This document shows positions 7,794-15,975 of a stretch of 64,000 nt of DNA, piece by piece. Origin of the DNA: Minisyncoccota bacterium (GTDB lineage: Bacteria > Patescibacteriota > Minisyncoccia > Phycocordibacterales > UBA918); assembly GCA_041389025.1 (NCBI GenBank), contig JAWKSP010000002.1, forward strand, positions 105,279-169,278. Direction: 5' to 3'. Each line of letters starts with the position of its first letter. Positions within the stretch are counted from its first letter, which is position 1. Below the pieces are notes generated by a model that searched no databases, was not told where the DNA came from, and was given only the letters and a program-made list of their open reading frames with translations. The position numbers were made by a program, and so were the translations under genes.

Positions 7794-8204
7794 TTAAGCC
7801 TCAGTTTTTAAAATAGGACGTGCTCGCAAATAATCCAAAATATAATTAAGAACAATTAGAACCAATAAAATAAACAATATTATACTTAAAATCAAGGTGG
7901 AACGGTCAGTTGCTGAGGCGTTTTGTTCACCTTCAGTATTACCAATATTTACTGCTATTAGTCTATCTTTGGCTTCAACTTCTTGTTCCAACTCCGTAAT
8001 CCTAGCTGTTAGTTGATTTACTTGAGTTGGTGCTACACCAACTCTCACTCCTACTGCTTGCGCCAAATAATCTTGTGTTCCAGTGGATAAAGTTCTTGTT
8101 TTTTCAGAAATAATCCCACTATCAAATACCAACAGGAAAGCAAATACCACCACTGCTATCCGTAGAAAACTATGATAAGTAGAATGCTCTATGCTATTTT
8201 TCAT
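7794..8204 (-). CDS. Small bitopic membrane protein with an N-terminal TM, a coiled-coil middle region, a C-terminal TM and a basic tail. Function unknown.
   Basis: Tightly packed between the surface-protein genes and the ABC exporter. Hydrophobic segments AVVVFAFLLVF and LILSIILFILLVLIVLNYIL. Confidence 0.5.
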   Translation of the reverse strand: MKNSIEHSTYHSFLRIAVVVFAFLLVFDSGIISEKTRTLSTGTQDYLAQAVGVRVGVAPTQVNQLTARITELEQEVEAKDRLIAVNIGNTEGEQNASATDRSTLILSIILFILLVLIVLNYILDYLRARPILKTEA

Positions 8205-8223: not shown

Positions 8224-9321
8224 TTAAGAGAATAATAAGAGTAAAATTATCATCAAAAGTGCCGTGATAACCAACATAGTAACAAACACCAACAAAACCG
8301 GGAATTGTGTATTCTTATGTCGTCGACTAACAAGACGTCTAGTCGAACCTCCGGTCATGACAGCTACTGTTCTTTTAATATAAATTTTAACCCCAAAATA
8401 CACTACTAGGAAAAATACGAGTAGACCAACCAGAGCCGGACCAACTATTTTCATTGGTAAAACCCAAAAAGTAACTGTACTGGTCATGGTTTTCATAGCT
8501 CCGGCATCGCCATATACAGCACTTAAAACAGCTTCATATCGTCCAAAACCAGGTGTCTCGTCTTGCCAATTTATTTCATAGTCTCTGACGGTCGGTCCGT
8601 TTTTAGTCATTGGAAATACCCCAGCTCCGTTCTCATTAAAGGTTATATTAGCTACTTGTTTTCCAAACATATTTGTCACTTCCAACGGTCCGATTGGCTT
8701 TACCAAAGTATTACCTTCATTTTCAATCCTGACTAAAAAATTTACATCAATACTCGAGTGTATATACTTTTCAGTTGAAAACTGTCTTATTTGTGCGGAC
8801 TCTACAACCTCTCCAGCGATGCGCATGCTTATTATATTTGCCACCTCATAACCGATACTGGCTCCACTAGAACGCATTTCAGGAGGTTCTACCGAAACCA
8901 CAATTGCACCAAAGTGTCCACCGGGAGTAGCGTCTTCCGGTGCCTGTAGGACAAAGGGTACAGCTCGTGCTTCTCCAGCTGGTATAAACACAGAGTCTTG
9001 CTCTAAGGTAATCCATTCACTAAGTTCATATCCGCTACGCTCTGTTTTTGAGTTTGCAAAAACTGGAACGCCACCCGGAGCAACATCAACGATATCTCTT
9101 CTTGATAAATAAAAAGTCTGATCGATACCACTTAGGTTACTAACTGAAACAGAAAAAGATCTGGTTTCACCCGGCTCCAACTTATCAGTTATACTAGCCG
9201 GTTTTATACCAACACCAGCTTCCTCTTGTGCGCTTACAATACTAATAAATGAAACAAATAATAAAAAAATAATTACCGCCAACCTAAATGTAATAGTGGC
9301 AAAATGATGTGCAAAATTCAT
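8224..9321 (-). CDS. Cell-surface protein with signal peptide, Ig-like body, a C-terminal TM anchor and a basic tail. The architecture resembles DUF916/DUF3324 proteins of WxL loci (inference).
   Basis: Signal peptide ...ISIVSAQEE. Beta-rich body GIKPASITDKLEPGETRSFSVSVSNLSG. C-terminal anchor LVGLLVFFLVVYFGVKIYIKRTVAV followed by RRLVSRRHK. Confidence 0.45.
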   Translation of the reverse strand: MNFAHHFATITFRLAVIIFLLFVSFISIVSAQEEAGVGIKPASITDKLEPGETRSFSVSVSNLSGIDQTFYLSRRDIVDVAPGGVPVFANSKTERSGYELSEWITLEQDSVFIPAGEARAVPFVLQAPEDATPGGHFGAIVVSVEPPEMRSSGASIGYEVANIISMRIAGEVVESAQIRQFSTEKYIHSSIDVNFLVRIENEGNTLVKPIGPLEVTNMFGKQVANITFNENGAGVFPMTKNGPTVRDYEINWQDETPGFGRYEAVLSAVYGDAGAMKTMTSTVTFWVLPMKIVGPALVGLLVFFLVVYFGVKIYIKRTVAVMTGGSTRRLVSRRHKNTQFPVLLVFVTMLVITALLMIILLLLFS

Positions 9322-9438: not shown

Positions 9439-10524
9439 CTAGAAAGTTGGTGTAGCAATATACATAAGTGTTGCTGTATAGTCGTCAGCTGCTTCCTGAA
9501 GCGGTGTCACTTCAATTTGGTAGCCAACTTTTGCCAAACCGTAGTCTTGTGTAGTTCCGTCAGACGGACCGTTGTGTGAAAAAATCTGACGTGGTGTAGT
9601 ACTTGCCGCGACCCATCGATCCCCGCCTGTGCCTACATTGAACTCATTGGCATTCAAGTCTGAGTCATCAGAAGTAAGACCCCAGTGTCCCCATGTATTC
9701 TCATCCAGCAAAGAATCTCCGGGTGACTGCCATGCTGCAGGTGTATCTACATAAGTTCCGTCAGTAAATCCGTCAATATCGGCACCAGTTGATGATTGCA
9801 AGTTACCGTCCTGTTCTACAGTAACAACAAATCCATTAATAGCGTTGGTTGTAACTCTAAGCTCTTGTCCAAGAGTGTATACAGTGTCTGATGAAAGTAC
9901 ACCGAACGGTATGGTAGTTGTACCAGTAGTTCCGGTGGTACTAGCGTTATTAACTGAGGTAGAAGTTGCCAAACCTGAAATTGTAAAGTCAAAAGTGGTA
10001 TCAATCACAGCACTGACTGTTACATAATCTACAATTGCTACTCTTGTCTGACCACTATCTGATGCTGTGGTAACGGTAAATTCATAAGATTGAATTGAAG
10101 CTGGGTTTGTCACCACACCATCAGCTATAACAATTCTCACCTCTTCTCCAGCAGCCGCAGCGACGTTATCAAAAGAGACATCCTGTCCAACCGCCGAAAA
10201 GTTTCCAATTGTTTCCGGAGCACCTCCCTCAACCGTCACAGTTAGGTTTCCAGATACTAGAGTGTTTACTCCAGTGAAGCCGGTTGGGAAATTAACATTT
10301 ACAGTATCGCCTGTTCCTAGTGATGAACCGGTAGGAATAGTAAATTTGATATCATGACCGGAAGTTACACTTGGTCCTGAGTCGGTTAATGTGTTACTAA
10401 CTTCTGTTAGGTTAGCTGCTTGTGCGGTCGAGTAAGCTCCGAGTGACCAGAGTACGACAGCGCACGCAACGAGCATCGCGACTACCCGGTGCGTAAAGCC
10501 AACTTTTGTTGGTATTACGTACAT
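9439..10524 (-). CDS. Secreted beta-rich surface protein with a Thr-rich segment (TTGTTGTTT). The C-terminal region is WxL-domain-like (inference).
   Basis: Signal peptide ending AYSTAQA. C-terminal motifs NTWGHWGLTSDD and DYTATLMYIATPTF resemble the two conserved WxL motifs (W-x-L ... Y-t-x-t-L-t-W-t-L-t-x-x-P) with W replaced by Y in the second. Confidence 0.4.
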   Translation of the reverse strand: MYVIPTKVGFTHRVVAMLVACAVVLWSLGAYSTAQAANLTEVSNTLTDSGPSVTSGHDIKFTIPTGSSLGTGDTVNVNFPTGFTGVNTLVSGNLTVTVEGGAPETIGNFSAVGQDVSFDNVAAAAGEEVRIVIADGVVTNPASIQSYEFTVTTASDSGQTRVAIVDYVTVSAVIDTTFDFTISGLATSTSVNNASTTGTTGTTTIPFGVLSSDTVYTLGQELRVTTNAINGFVVTVEQDGNLQSSTGADIDGFTDGTYVDTPAAWQSPGDSLLDENTWGHWGLTSDDSDLNANEFNVGTGGDRWVAASTTPRQIFSHNGPSDGTTQDYGLAKVGYQIEVTPLQEAADDYTATLMYIATPTF

Positions 10525-10852
10525 GTTTATTTATTTATTATTTTTACTAAATAACTGAAGTCATTTTTTCATTTGATAGAGAATGAAATAGCGACTAGTC
10601 GGTTGAAATTTTTTCTGTGGAGAGACATTTAAAAAAATTTTGTTTGAAAAGTAAGCCAAAATTTTTAATGTCAACCTCAACCGTCTGAGACCATTATAAT
10701 TTTAATAAGACGTTTTGTCTGAAATCTTATGTTGATAACTTGTAAAGAACAAGACAATATTATTAAATTTAACCTTATTTTTAAATTTGTTTTTAAATTT
10801 TAAGAGACTTACTTTTACAACTTTGTTAAGTACTAATGTCTGTTTTATTTTT

Positions 10853-12133
10853 CTAATGTACAATTTTTATTTTTTGCCAATCAGTAGTGTAAGCAGGTGA
10901 AATACGGTCTTTTTTGTTTAGCCAAATTCTTTTTTTACGATCAGGTAAGCTCCCTAACCTCAACATATCTTGCCTGTTTTTTTGGTTTACTGAAAAGAGT
11001 AAGTTGGTCAGTTCCGCCTTATTTTTAGTATTATCAGGAATTGGGAATAATGAATTTGTTTTTTCCTGTTCAACCACCAATCCAGATAACATAACCCCAG
11101 CTTTTTTATACTGAATAGAAGGTTTGTAATTTATTTCAAGTAAATTTATTGCTTCTTTTGTTAAAGTAAATAAATCTCTAGTTGACTCATTTAAAATAAC
11201 TTCTAATTTAGAATTGAGTATAAGGGATTTATTATTAAAACTGGGTTTAATACTTATTCGCAAAATTTTTGCTTCTAATTTGGTTGCATACAAGGTACTG
11301 ACACATTTAAAAACGTGGTATTTTATAGCTTCTTTTAAATCATTTATGTCATTTGTAGATTGACTAAAAGAACGTGAGTTCATAATACTTTTTTGTAAAT
11401 CTTTCTTAAAATTAATCGGAAAAACTATCTCTCCCATAAGCTCGTCTTGCAGCCTAACACCAAAAACCCCAAACCAGTCATTGAGTTGACGTTTTGAGAC
11501 ATTAAATAAATCTTTTACTGTTACTAAACCATAATCATTAAACATCCTTACCTTATCTTGACCAACTCCCCACAACTCTGAAAGTTTAATCTTCTCAGAT
11601 CTTTGTTTCCAGGTCTTCATCGACCAAACTTCTACTCCAGTTTTTGTCTTTTTAGAAATCTTGTTTACATATTTAGCTTGTGTCTTTGATGAAGCTACGC
11701 CAATGGAGACCGGAACGCCTACGTGTCTTTCCACCTTATTTTTTACTCTAATCATTTCTTTAAAATCAAAATCTGTTTTAAAAAAACACTCATCAATTGA
11801 ATATCTTTCTACCTTACCCACTTCACCTTCTACGGTTACAAAAACACGCTTTGCTATATCTTTATATAAAGCAAAGTTAGCTGGAAAAGTTACTATTTTT
11901 CTGTCCTTTATTATGTCTTTTATATGGAAATAAGGGACACCCATTGCTATACCCATGTCTTTTACTTCCTGAGATCGTGCTACCACACAACCTTCATCAC
12001 TAGAAAGTACTAGAACTGGTTTTTCTCTTAAATCTGGTCTAAACAACCGCTCACAAGAAACAAAGAAATTATTACAATCTAAAACACCGATTTTATCGGT
12101 GTTCGCTTCTAATATTTCTCTATTATCTAGCAT
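10853..12133 (-). CDS. umuC: Y-family translesion DNA polymerase, UmuC-like.
   Basis: LDCNNFFVSCERLFRPDLREKPVLVLSSDEGCVVARS aligns with E. coli UmuC CDVNAFYASCETVFRPDLWGKPVVVLSNNDGCVIARN. Other matches: YSIDECFF (YSIDEAF) and YKKAGVML (YQKAGVML). Confidence 0.9.
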   Translation of the reverse strand: MLDNREILEANTDKIGVLDCNNFFVSCERLFRPDLREKPVLVLSSDEGCVVARSQEVKDMGIAMGVPYFHIKDIIKDRKIVTFPANFALYKDIAKRVFVTVEGEVGKVERYSIDECFFKTDFDFKEMIRVKNKVERHVGVPVSIGVASSKTQAKYVNKISKKTKTGVEVWSMKTWKQRSEKIKLSELWGVGQDKVRMFNDYGLVTVKDLFNVSKRQLNDWFGVFGVRLQDELMGEIVFPINFKKDLQKSIMNSRSFSQSTNDINDLKEAIKYHVFKCVSTLYATKLEAKILRISIKPSFNNKSLILNSKLEVILNESTRDLFTLTKEAINLLEINYKPSIQYKKAGVMLSGLVVEQEKTNSLFPIPDNTKNKAELTNLLFSVNQKNRQDMLRLGSLPDRKKRIWLNKKDRISPAYTTDWQKIKIVH

Positions 12134-12158
12134 TAGCTATATTGTAACCTGTCTCTAT

Positions 12159-13346
12159 TTATCTCCAAATTTTCTTATCTTCTTCACCGTCAATTTTAAA
12201 ATATGCCACTCCAGCTAAATTATATTTTTCAGCTAATTCTATTTTTTCTTTTGCTGCTTTTGCATCAGAATAGGTAATGAAACGTACAGTCACTTCTTGA
12301 CCAGTCATATTAGCGAACAATAGTGCTCTAGCGGCATTTTCAAACCCTTCTGGTGTTCCTTCGGGTACCGGCAAAGCTGTTAAAACTCTATAAGGTGAAG
12401 TGTCTGGAAAGTAACTGATAACCGCCTCCCCACCGGCAGTTCGACCAATTGGTGAATCGTATTTTTCAGCCAACTCCTTAATTCTTGGTATATTTAAAGA
12501 AGCTACTTTAATGTAATCTCTATACCAATTCGGAGAAACTTTTACATCCCAAGCTCGACCATAAGTCGGTACTCCTAAAAAAACTTTTTCTTCCGGAAAA
12601 TCTTCCAAAGCTAAGACGAGAACCTTCTCTACCCAATCAATATCAGCCACCGGCATATACGGTACACCAGCTCTTTCTTCATTAAGCTTTATATCAGCTC
12701 GTTGCTGATCATAGGCCATTATTTCAATTCGATCACAATAACGTCCAATTTTGTTGTAATTATTGGCATATTCTATTTTTTCCGGCACTTCTCGCCAACG
12801 AGATTCTGTAGGAGTCCGTGCTTCTATTGCGCAAGTTAGTTCTTTAGAACCTAAAGCTTGATTTAATTCACGTAAAAAATCTGAAAAATAATCTATAGTT
12901 TCAGACTTTTTTTGTTCATAATCAATGTTTATCCCAGCAAAATCATTATCATCTACCAAGTCTTCAATTTCTTTTATATGTTGTTTTCTTTTCTTTTTAT
13001 CACTTAAGACCTCATGAATAGCTTCACCATCAAACCAAGCAATAGTAGGAATAACTTCTACTCTTTTCTTTTTAGCTTGCCGAAACAAATCTTTCCATTC
13101 CTTAGAATCTAAGTCAGTTTTTGCTACGATTTCTTCCTTCTCATTAATTTCATAGACAAATGGGTAAATAGTATCTAATTTATTAAGATTCTTCTTGGTA
13201 CTTGCTATACCTTCCTTATCTTGCCACCACGGTATCCAGCCAGCTGTCTCCAAGCCTTTAGCGCTAGCTGTTGGTAAAATACTAAAAGATACTAATAAAA
13301 TTAGCAAAAAAGCCGTAGTTTGTTTTAAAATCACTTTATTATTCAT
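12159..13346 (-). CDS. Secreted glycoside hydrolase family 18-like protein (chitinase or chitin-binding type). The catalytic motif is variant: [10 protein letters not shown].
   Basis: Signal peptide ...ILPTASA. GWIPWW is an N-terminal GH18 motif. AGINIDYE corresponds to DGxDxDWE with the first Asp replaced by Asn. [10 protein letters not shown] matches the GH18 LGxPxYGR motif. Confidence 0.65.
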
Positions 13347-13391
13347 ATTTTTTAGTTATTAATCTTTAATGACGTTTTCTTACCCTAAAAC

Positions 13392-13868
13392 TTACCTAAA
13401 ATCACGCACACTAGCAGTTACTACACCCCAAACAAAACAATCGTCATTTTCGTTGATAATAATTGGCTTATAGTCTTTGTTGGCTGATACAAGCTCAGTT
13501 TGATTGTTTTTTATCTTTAGATACTTTACCACCATTTCTCCATAAACAGCAGCAATAACTATTTTTCCCGAAACTAAAGGCAATGAACGGTCTACTACTA
13601 AGATATCACCAGAAAAGATACCAGCCCCTTCCATTGAATCTCCTTCAATTCTGACAAAGAAAGTTGAATTTGGGTTATTTACCAGCAATTCATTTAAATC
13701 TAAAGTTTTTTCAACCAAGTCATCTCCCATCATCGGAAAGCCAGCCGCAGGACGTGAGCTATACAAGGGTAAATCAATTTTAAAATCAGCTGAATAAGTC
13801 ATTACAGCGGTGACTTTTAAAGTTTTTTCCATACTCTTAATTTTAGCATTAAAATTAAGTAAACTCAT
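13392..13868 (-). CDS. umuD: UmuD, an S24 LexA-like self-cleaving peptidase and translesion-polymerase accessory subunit.
   Basis: AAGFP (Ala-Gly cleavage site), RIEGDSMEGAGIFSGDILVVDRS, and IVIAAVYGEMVVKYL align closely with E. coli UmuD. Confidence 0.85.
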   Translation of the reverse strand: MSLLNFNAKIKSMEKTLKVTAVMTYSADFKIDLPLYSSRPAAGFPMMGDDLVEKTLDLNELLVNNPNSTFFVRIEGDSMEGAGIFSGDILVVDRSLPLVSGKIVIAAVYGEMVVKYLKIKNNQTELVSANKDYKPIIINENDDCFVWGVVTASVRDFR

Positions 13869-14136
13869 TAAGAGTTTAGATTTTTTAAATACTTTATTTT
13901 TTAAAGTTATTTTATAATATATACTTATATATACATTTGTGATATAATCGTACTCTCGCTAAATAGCTTGGCTATGAAGCGAGATATTTTGTTTATTAAA
14001 AAGGAGATATTATGACAAAAAAGTTCTTTTAGTAGTACTGGTTGTTTTTTTACTTTTTATAAACCACACAAAAGCCGGACTAATTGCTGTAAATGTTCTC
14101 TATGAACACACCCTAGCAACTAACGAAGGCTTAGTT

Positions 14137-14352
14137 ATGGCGATCGGAATAACACAAGATAGTAATTTTGATTTTCCTAATTTTGATCATACCGACCTTA
14201 TACATACCGTAAAGGATGTACAGACCGGTAGAACTTGGGATTTTCATTCTGTTTCTAACAACAACGTACACACAGTAGATGAACCTGAAACTTGGTTTCT
14301 GTTACTAACTAGTATGTTGATTGTGTTATTTATTATCACAAGAAAAGTTTAA
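14137..14352 (+). CDS. Small protein with a C-terminal sorting-signal-like tail (DEPETW, then a hydrophobic stretch, then RKV). The reading frame stays open upstream to an RBS-bearing ATG at 14012 that is out of frame at an A6 run.
   Basis: AAAGGAG-N5-ATG at 14012 gives MTKKFF then a stop. The +2 frame from 14014 reads DKKVLLVVLVVFLLFINHTKAGLIAVNV... continuously into the 14137 ORF. This suggests a frameshift or sequencing error in AAAAAA at 14017-14022. Confidence 0.35.
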   Translation: MAIGITQDSNFDFPNFDHTDLIHTVKDVQTGRTWDFHSVSNNNVHTVDEPETWFLLLTSMLIVLFIITRKV

Positions 14353-14443
14353 GCAACCATGAGGGCAATCCTTTTATTTTAGAGGATTGTCCTCTTTTTT
14401 ATATTTTTATTACACTGAAAGGCTAAAGTACGAACAGGTTTAA

Positions 14444-15337
14444 TTAGTAACCATAATTAAACCGACTAAATACCATCATTTCCTGACAAGGAGTTTTATA
14501 GGTATCTATATCCTTTAATTTGGAACTTTCTTCGTTCCTAAAATAATACTGAGCTCTTTTCTTCATTATTTCGCGTTGTTCTCGCATTTCTTCACGACTA
14601 TGAAAATCATCATAAAACCAAGGAAATACTCCACAAACATGTATTTTGGGTGGTTTAATTCCCAAAACTTGCCCCACCACTTTCACATTTTGACCGGTAC
14701 CAAGCCTTTTTATATCATCGTCATCCAATTCAGTAGTAACTAAACCCCAGCGAGTATTATATATATCGACAAACAAAGCTTCTGAATTATCATTATTCAT
14801 TTCATAAACCTGACCGATTATGCGACCAGCCACTGGGCTTTGCCAAAGTCTAAGCTCAATTTTCTCCTGTGAATTATATAAAGAAATATAATGCCCTAAC
14901 CACCTATCTGCACTAAAACCGATTCCACTAGTTTGCAACAAGACACCACCGACAAAACTAACTCCCACACTTAAACCAACTACCACCAAAAGCGAATAAC
15001 GATAACCTCTCTTAGTATGCCTTATGTTGTAAGTAGCTAAAATAATCATTAAAAATAGTAAAAAAAACCATAAAAAAGGTAAGACCTCTACCATAAAAGT
15101 GAGGAAATTATCGTGAGTGGCTTCATATAAGGCATATTGACGATAACCAATCACAAACAAAGTAATAGCTACAGCTATCGCTCCTACTCCAGTACTTAGA
15201 AACCAGAAAAACCAGAAAATTATTTCTTTAACTAGAAAAAAAGCCTTTGGTCGGGGATTTAAATCGTTCTCTTTTAAACGCTCCAAGACACTGGTTTTTA
15301 AGTCTTTCTCTGGATTTTTACCATTCATACTTTTCAT
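14444..15337 (-). CDS. Membrane protein, putative anti-sigma factor. Its start overlaps the stop of the ECF sigma gene by 4 bp.
   Basis: ATGA overlap with the upstream sigma gene. Multiple TM helices. No recognisable enzymatic motif. Confidence 0.45.
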   Translation of the reverse strand: MKSMNGKNPEKDLKTSVLERLKENDLNPRPKAFFLVKEIIFWFFWFLSTGVGAIAVAITLFVIGYRQYALYEATHDNFLTFMVEVLPFLWFFLLFLMIILATYNIRHTKRGYRYSLLVVVGLSVGVSFVGGVLLQTSGIGFSADRWLGHYISLYNSQEKIELRLWQSPVAGRIIGQVYEMNNDNSEALFVDIYNTRWGLVTTELDDDDIKRLGTGQNVKVVGQVLGIKPPKIHVCGVFPWFYDDFHSREEMREQREIMKKRAQYYFRNEESSKLKDIDTYKTPCQEMMVFSRFNYGY

Positions 15338-15975
15338 ATACGTATATAATCTTGATTTAATGCATTTAAAAGTTGTTTTTTTCCACGATGTATCAGTGTA
15401 CCAACCGATCCAATAGGAATCTTGAGCACATCTGAAATCTCATCATACTCCAGATGCTCAAAATACCGCAAAATTAATACTTGTTTATATTTTTCATCAA
15501 TCCTTTCTAAGGCCTTGCCTACTTCTTCAATGTTTATTTTTTGATCAAAAGCAATATCGGGAGTATCATCAGATGAATCGATCAACTTTAAAACTTCGTC
15601 GCTATCAGCAATCAAATGTCCCTCTGGTCTTACCGTATGCTTACGGTACCAGCTAATTGCTTCATTATGAGCTATCCTATATATCCAAGCAGAAAAAGAC
15701 AAAGACCTATCAAAACTATTTAAATTTTTATAAGCTTTTATAAATATTTCCTGCAACACATCCAATTGATCATCTGGATTCTTAACACCCAAGCGGTTGA
15801 TATAACGCTTCAACTTAGCTTCATAACGTTCCACAATAAAACCAAAAGAACTCCGTTCACGGAGTGTCATTTCAACTAATTCTTTATCAGTTGGCTGATT
15901 CTGTTCCATACACGATAGAGTATTTACTATGGTGACACAGATCAGAGTAAAATAAAAACAATAAAACTCATACAA
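15334..15975 (-). CDS. RNA polymerase sigma factor, ECF (sigma-70 group 4) type. The likely true start is the internal Met at 15909.
   Basis: Region 2: FSAWIYRIAHNEAISWYRK. Region 4 helix-turn-helix: YKQVLILRYFEHLEYDEISDVLKIPIGSVGTLIHRGKKQL. Confidence 0.8.
   Translation of the reverse strand: MYEFYCFYFTLICVTIVNTLSCMEQNQPTDKELVEMTLRERSSFGFIVERYEAKLKRYINRLGVKNPDDQLDVLQEIFIKAYKNLNSFDRSLSFSAWIYRIAHNEAISWYRKHTVRPEGHLIADSDEVLKLIDSSDDTPDIAFDQKINIEEVGKALERIDEKYKQVLILRYFEHLEYDEISDVLKIPIGSVGTLIHRGKKQLLNALNQDYIRI

Follow-up and report, generated by a model that had tools for sequence, protein, structure and literature searches.

In the textbook arrangement known from Escherichia coli, the genes umuD and umuC of the mutagenic DNA polymerase V (Pol V) form a tightly coupled operon which is repressed by LexA. 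Here we describe a locus at which the two genes are instead split by an unrelated, and probably separately promoted, gene of the cell envelope, and at which no operator was detectable. The DNA analysed, referred to as the window in the following, is a 64-kb part of the genome of a tiny uncultured bacterium of the Paceibacteria, which belong to the candidate phyla radiation (CPR). Three open reading frames (ORFs) follow each other on its minus strand in the order umuD (13392..13868), a gene for a secreted glycoside hydrolase of family 18 (GH18; 12159..13346) and umuC (10853..12133), and the co-directional orientation of umuD and umuC with a gene between them is as described in the first-pass annotation of this DNA. 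Similar to the E. coli system, the pair comprises an S24 protein of the UmuD type, in which the cleavage site and the Ser/Lys dyad are found, and a Y-family polymerase with a C-terminal DUF4113 tail as in UmuC. Unlike the E. coli genes, umuD and umuC of the window are neither adjacent nor overlapping but separated by the 1.2-kb gene for the secreted enzyme, and each of them has a predicted leaderless promoter of its own. As judged from the sequence comparisons presented below, this is likely to be the inherited layout of a large clade of Paceibacteria, in which the two Pol V genes flank a gene for a cell-wall enzyme and all three genes would be promoted independently.

Proteins of the window were used in tblastn searches of related genomes, for which one genome per species was scanned, with 231 returned and 80 loci kept. 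About 58 of these 80 species-level Paceibacteria loci share both the order and the common strand of umuD, GH18 and umuC, and umuC is followed in most relatives by homologues of three further window genes, p361, p365 and p136. Clustering of all ORFs delineated a conserved block that reads (large surface protein)-(sortase)-CAP-domain membrane protein-umuD-GH18-(Nudix)-umuC-p361-p365-p136. In about 19 loci the Nudix gene, encoded on the opposite strand, intervenes between GH18 and umuC, and about 11 loci have a gene pair for an extracytoplasmic function (ECF) sigma factor and a membrane protein upstream of the cluster. In a neighbor-joining tree of the GH18 proteins, the state flanked by umuD and umuC fills one large clade, inside which umuD and umuC have been lost together at scattered positions; in a second clade GH18 adjoins a gene for a putative truB-like pseudouridine synthase, as assigned from its sequence, and umuDC is missing. 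The number of loci that share the order, together with the large clade in the GH18 tree, strongly indicates that the umuD-GH18-umuC layout is ancestral and widespread and not the product of a recent insertion. The split most likely goes back to a single event that placed the GH18 unit between umuD and umuC in an ancestor of the clade. The proposal of the first-pass annotation that GH18 had been inserted into an SOS operon is contradicted by this distribution, and an ancestral, widespread gene order is what that annotation had itself named as a refutation. Similarly, the idea that a GH18 cassette or mobile element was inserted recently and in this genome alone has nothing in its favor but the unusual gene order, whereas this order is common to dozens of species with GH18 proteins 52-79% identical to that of the window, and we regard such an event as hardly credible.

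Across the relatives, umuD and umuC are either both present or both absent. The complete relative CP060229.1 (L018) contains umuD-GH18-umuC. A close relative from Ca. Nomurabacteria, the likewise complete CP060227.1 (L081), possesses the ECF sigma factor gene (79% identical), the gene for the anti-sigma candidate, GH18 (63%), p361 (78%), p365 and p136, and the GH18 promoter described below is retained, but no trace of umuD or umuC was found there. As GH18, its promoter and its neighbors are kept at this locus without the polymerase genes, GH18 can exist independently of umuDC. It therefore appears to belong with the envelope genes, and umuD and umuC appear to form a pair that is inherited and lost together around it. 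No evidence for a functional coupling of GH18 and umuDC was found beyond the conserved neighborhood. The typical Paceibacteria block CAP-umuD-GH18-umuC-p361 was also observed on contigs labelled as Acidimicrobiales (L013), Azotimanducaceae (L023) and, in many cases, 'uncultured Candidatus Saccharibacteria'; these contigs are probably mis-binned or mislabelled.

The assignment of the flanking genes to Pol V is based on domain models and on individual residues. Peptidase_S24 is the sole Pfam domain of the UmuD ORF (residues 34-150, E=1.7e-30), and the NCBIfam model of the Pol V autoproteolytic subunit was matched with 140.5 bits at a cutoff of 110, compared to 68 bits at a cutoff of 111 for the LexA model. 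With UmuD of E. coli the protein shares 42% identity, and in the alignment of the two A42-G43, S78 and K115 correspond to C24-G25, S60 and K97. The identity of umuD, the Ala-Gly cleavage site and the Ser/Lys dyad, all of which had been read from the sequence earlier, are therefore well supported, with the difference to the E. coli protein that cleavage there occurs at Cys-Gly. Since orthologues in several relatives begin at the position matching M13, the ATG at position 13832 is the probable start of umuD, which would result in a protein of 146 instead of 158 amino acids. The UmuC ORF harbors the Pfam domains IMS for palm and fingers (95.5 bits) and IMS_C for the little finger (45.4 bits) in addition to the DUF4113 tail. 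Its best NCBIfam model is UmuC (214 bits, E=2.8e-63), compared to at most 116 bits for the models of DNA polymerase IV (Pol IV), and the motifs LDCNNFF (D19) and SIDE (D113-E114) align with DMDAFF and SIDE of a solved Pol IV. As the cleavage site, the Ser/Lys dyad and the catalytic acidic residues are present, UmuD and UmuC apparently constitute a functional translesion polymerase of the UmuD'2C type.

The middle gene finds its closest described counterparts in SleL/YaaH and YdhD of Bacillus (PDB 4s3j, 4s3k, 3cz8), which gave the best fold matches and by sequence, too, ranked with the best matches in the PDB. SleL and YaaH carry N-terminal LysM repeats. The window protein lacks a LysM domain in Pfam; Glyco_hydro_18 (PF00704) is its sole Pfam domain, recognized in the profile search with 92 bits at a cutoff of 29.6, which bears out the GH18 relationship put forward in the first-pass annotation. 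Furthermore, the identity to SleL and YdhD is just 18-22%, and the protein belongs to a Paceibacteria family of its own. In contrast to SleL with its spore-coat context, it starts with a signal-peptide-like N-terminus with a putative cleavage site before KG, as read from the sequence by eye, and its host is a non-sporulating CPR bacterium. Based on the single domain and the low identity, the window protein is to be considered a relative of SleL and not its orthologue. It is identical to a protein annotated in a metagenome-assembled genome at NCBI, 'Candidatus Paceibacterota', and 1112 homologues were retrieved, the best 120 of which have a length of about 400 amino acids and an identity of 60-79%, indicative of a family that is well conserved in this class of the CPR.

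The sequence motifs already quoted for this protein in the first-pass annotation are all present, and so is FAGINIDYE, with the substitution of Asp by Asn within N-I-D-Y-E. The canonical DxxDxDxE motif is accordingly incomplete and reads A137-x-x-N140-x-D142-x-E144 in the window protein, with the D-x-E core kept. From this variant a lectin-like or reduced-activity chitinase had been deduced, and the loss of the first two Asp residues as well as the appearance of chitinase-like lectins lower in the list of fold matches would agree with a non-catalytic or crippled protein. However, among 28 diverse family members the consensus is DGINIDYE, Asn140 occurs in at least 90%, and no exchange at all is seen at Asp142, at Glu144 as the proton donor or in the MxYDQQ motif. 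It is typically this Glu that is missing from GH18 lectins without catalytic activity. The AlphaFold model of the protein (mean predicted local distance difference test score, pLDDT, 87) matched SleL (4s3k and 4s3j, E ~2e-22) best in the Foldseek search of the PDB, followed by 4wiw, 5jh8, 4q6t and YdhD, and all proteins among the matches listed are GH18 or chitinase-like proteins, in line with a (beta/alpha)8 catalytic domain of the GH18 type. The nearest solved relatives lack the same Asp (YdhD, GVTIDFE; 4q6t, GINLDFE; 5jh8, GINVDFE; YaaH, DIHFDFE); in SleL/YaaH and YdhD the D-x-E core is similarly kept and the upstream Asp residues are absent. One of the relatives without these residues is an enzyme, as a passage in PMC10653849, citing Lambert & Popham 2008, lists SleL of B. 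anthracis as an N-acetylglucosaminidase acting on peptidoglycan. As the nearest relatives in sequence and fold lack the same Asp, Asn140 is nearly invariant and the D-x-E pair fully so, the Asn variant appears to mark a peptidoglycan-type subfamily of GH18 rather than a loss of catalysis, and we consider a lectin or a crippled chitinase quite unlikely. The window protein is thus most likely a peptidoglycan N-acetylglucosaminidase of the SleL/YaaH/YdhD subfamily. Some relatives (L001, L040, L042 and L071) possess a second, distant GH18 paralogue of about 25% identity. Its neighbor is a large membrane protein with multiple passes (family f20), a putative glycosyltransferase by the look of its sequence, and, in L001 and L071, also a second secreted protein (family f22), which by the same token would be a polysaccharide deacetylase.

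A further characteristic of GH18 is the region directly upstream of the gene. The promoters of Bacillus ECF sigma factors (sigW, sigX, sigM, sigV) follow the pattern TGaAAC-N16/17-CGTc. Similarly, a motif G[TA]AAG[AT]-N15-CGTC directly precedes GH18 in 72 of 82 loci; of the 65 matches scored, 63 have a spacer of exactly 15 nt, and the distance most often seen between CGTC and the in-frame ATG, 9 nt, implies that the mRNA is leaderless. Within 909 kb of loci the motif occurs 77 times, compared to 1-6 times in shuffled sequences, and about 69 of the matches are located at GH18, with none assigned to the upstream regions of the umuD, umuC, CAP, p361 or ECF genes. The copy at 13371..13395 on the minus strand (GTAAGT-N15-CGTC), with a predicted -35 element overlapping the umuD stop codon, is the only one in the window. 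Thus, GH18 probably has an alternative-sigma, ECF-like promoter of its own, tG(t/a)AAGA-N15-CGTC. The resemblance to the Bacillus promoters lies in the bipartite composition (tG(t/a)AAG-N16-CGTC), in the rigid spacing, in the position before a cell-envelope gene and in a nearby gene pair for an ECF sigma factor and a membrane protein. In contrast to them, the last base of the -35 element is G and not C, the neighboring ECF gene of the window lacks an autoregulatory copy of the motif, and the target mRNA is predicted to be mostly leaderless.

In the window, the sigma factor of this pair is encoded on the minus strand at 15334-15975, with Sigma70_r2 and r4_2 domains. The gene overlaps by 4 nt with that of a 297-aa membrane protein (14444-15337, minus strand), which can be considered an anti-sigma factor by position only. 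The pair, which together spans 14444..15975, possibly regulates the GH18 promoter. The ATG at 15909 (MEQNQ...) is the probable start of the ECF sigma gene, as the listed TTG at 15975 lies probably too far upstream. About 20 nt before the probable start, the ECF sigma genes of the window (~15910-15940, minus strand) and of L001, L004 and L051 share the box TGTCACCATA. Autoregulation of the sigma factor via a motif of the GH18 type was considered as well and rejected, as no copy is located upstream of the ECF genes. The same absence, along with the -35 element that ends in AAG and not in the AAC usual for ECF sigma factors, would favor that GTAAGA-N15-CGTC serves not as a promoter but as a transcription-factor binding site or within an RNA element at the 5' end. 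On the other hand, the motif consists of two short blocks at a rigid distance of 15 nt that form neither a repeat nor a palindrome, the modal 9 nt between CGTC and the ATG fit the -10 element of a leaderless gene, and in an Rfam search of the whole window a single transfer RNA alone reached the gathering score, with nothing in the umuD-GH18-umuC region. A role other than that of a promoter is therefore regarded as unlikely, although it retains some weight.

The promoters predicted for umuD and umuC are of a different kind. In 34 of 61 umuD and 48 of 61 umuC orthologues, the ATG is preceded at a distance of 5-10 nt by an extended -10 element (tTGgTATAcT), a spacing which implies leaderless mRNAs; those umuD genes that lack it mostly abut the upstream CAP gene. 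In the window, the corresponding minus-strand elements are TGcTAAAAT at 13840..13848, located 7 nt before the ATG of umuD at 13832, and TTGGAG-N16-TACAAT at 12141..12168, with 7 nt to the ATG of umuC at 12133 and with the predicted -35 element inside the final codons of GH18. The same placement was observed for 61% of CAP, 84% of p136 and 74% of Nudix genes versus 2.2% of internal ATGs, suggesting that promoters of this leaderless, extended -10 type are widespread in the lineage. In several of the loci with the Nudix gene, which include L005, L006, L009, L011 and L030, its start is located only about 5-30 nt from that of umuC, so that the two form a very tight divergent pair which is apparently leaderless. 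A generic scan of 10400-14500 for sigma-70 promoters and terminators performed no better than on shuffled sequences. Literature searches on Parcubacteria and the CPR listed no paper with a mention of umuC or umuD, and promoter or transcript data for this lineage were not found in the literature consulted.

No LexA box, classical or de novo, was identified at these promoters, which differs from the situation in E. coli. Neither GAAC-N4-GTTC nor CTGT-N8-ACAG occurs with one mismatch or less at 13869-14100 upstream of umuD, in agreement with what had been stated for this region before, and the counts of both patterns throughout the window are at or below the expectation from shuffling. The exact GAAC-N4-GTTC at 11370-11381 was dismissed as a LexA box, as it is situated within the coding sequence of umuC and occurs at chance level. 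A sequence logo starting at -50 over 80 umuD and umuC promoters revealed no conserved position besides the extended -10 element. Analysis of dyad enrichment including 60 nt of the coding region yielded nothing common to umuD and umuC, and over 300 nt upstream of umuD the only signals could be traced to the CAP-domain gene located there, namely to its 3' end.

A single SOS operon, in which umuD, GH18 and umuC would be transcribed from the umuD promoter, LexA would act on an operator particular to the phylum and not recognized here, and GH18 would provide a damage-induced function at the cell wall, has to be weighed against three independently promoted genes. In the window, umuD and GH18 are just 45 nt apart, and the 25 nt between GH18 and umuC represent the most compact case of all; no minus-strand terminator-like hairpin was found between the three genes, and read-through across all of them, and hence their co-transcription, is possible. 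The gene order is conserved in many genomes, and LexA would be present somewhere in the superphylum, as indicated by work on a DNA-damage network of Patescibacteria which is cited by Erill and co-workers (reference 52 in the reference list of PMC7739468). These points are opposed by the promoter comparison, in which only the extended -10 element was conserved and no dyad was shared, by the highly conserved promoter predicted for GH18, which is not of the sigma-70 type, and by the retention of GH18 with this promoter where umuDC is absent. In addition, about 27 of 61 umuD genes lack a -10 box of their own, most of them lying immediately next to the envelope gene for the CAP-domain protein. In the relatives, 18 of the 25 directly adjacent GH18-umuC pairs are separated by a terminator-like hairpin, and a further 35 pairs are more than 400 nt apart, often with the Nudix gene on the opposite strand and with inserts of up to 3.8 kb. 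Terminators, own promoters and opposite-strand genes between the genes thus argue against a single operon in these species, and we hold an SOS operon to be improbable, though worth keeping in mind.

Apart from the short gaps and the missing terminators, several further observations weigh against independent promoters and against a Pol V free of LexA. A degenerate operator could have slipped past the tests with 4-mer dyads and the logo. No second S24 gene was found in the window, which is part of the genome only, and a lexA gene may lie elsewhere. The predicted promoters at the locus are all inferred from sequence conservation. The GH18 motif of the window itself deviates from the family, as it reads GTAAGT and not GTAAGA and is located 24 nt and not 9 nt before the ATG, and neither in the window nor in the relatives are the ECF genes preceded by such a motif. 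Finally, the UmuC score falls short of the curated NCBIfam cutoff of 431 bits; the identity of umuC stated in the first-pass annotation stands, but the 'strong similarity' to E. coli UmuC claimed there was for this reason somewhat overstated.

If the three genes are promoted independently, umuD and umuC would each be read from an ordinary extended -10 promoter into a leaderless mRNA, without a conserved repressor site. As there was no sign of LexA-type repression, control of mutagenesis would then rest mainly on the self-cleavage of UmuD stimulated by RecA*. GH18, encoding the secreted enzyme between them, would be expressed from its alternative-sigma promoter, for which the ECF sigma/anti-sigma pair nearby may be responsible. 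It might further be speculated that all of this is connected: Pol V of Paceibacteria would be free of LexA-type transcriptional control, its genes would be transcribed constitutively from leaderless promoters and its activity gated by UmuD cleavage alone, and in compact genomes the envelope-stress (ECF-type) promoter of GH18 would read through into umuC, where no terminator intervenes. The mutagenic polymerase would thereby be tied to envelope stress, and selection for this coupling would keep the order umuD, GH18 and umuC. We give this extended scenario little credence. The findings leave the known workings of Pol V and of GH18 enzymes unchanged and show no new mechanism. They do bear on the question of how mutagenic polymerases are restrained in the streamlined genomes of the CPR, and they provide, in tGtAAGA-N15-CGTC, a concrete candidate promoter on which recognition by an alternative sigma factor can be tested.

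The surroundings of the three genes in the window differ in part from those in the relatives. The genes for the CAP-domain membrane protein and the large surface protein, which precede umuD in most relatives, L004 and L051 among them, are absent from 13869-14443, and umuD and the anti-sigma-like gene are just 576 bp apart, with a small divergent ORF in between. This ORF (14137-14352, within the plus-strand region 14012-14352) comprises 71 amino acids with a PEP-CTERM-like tail, PETWFLLLTSMLIVLFIITRKV, and its frame extends upstream as a signal peptide, KVLLVVLVVFLLFINHTKAG. An ATG at 14012, behind an AAGGAG ribosome-binding site, is out of frame by one base within an A-run, which points to an error of sequencing in the homopolymer, to a pseudogene or to phase variation.

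Downstream of umuC, the conserved block continues on the minus strand with p361 (9439-10524), p365 (8224-9321), which has a weak match to the Pfam family WxLIP_PGBD, and p136 (7794-8204), with which it ends; all three are genes for conserved surface or membrane proteins. The leader of p361 (10525-10640 on the minus strand of the window) is conserved in about 50 related loci and contains tCTCCACAgaaaCTTCAAtCG about 85-95 nt before the ATG, followed by a variable hairpin-like stretch and then by AGTTATTTAA about 20 nt before the ATG. The leader has no match in Rfam; it may represent a dedicated promoter or an element in the 5' untranslated region of surface-protein genes.

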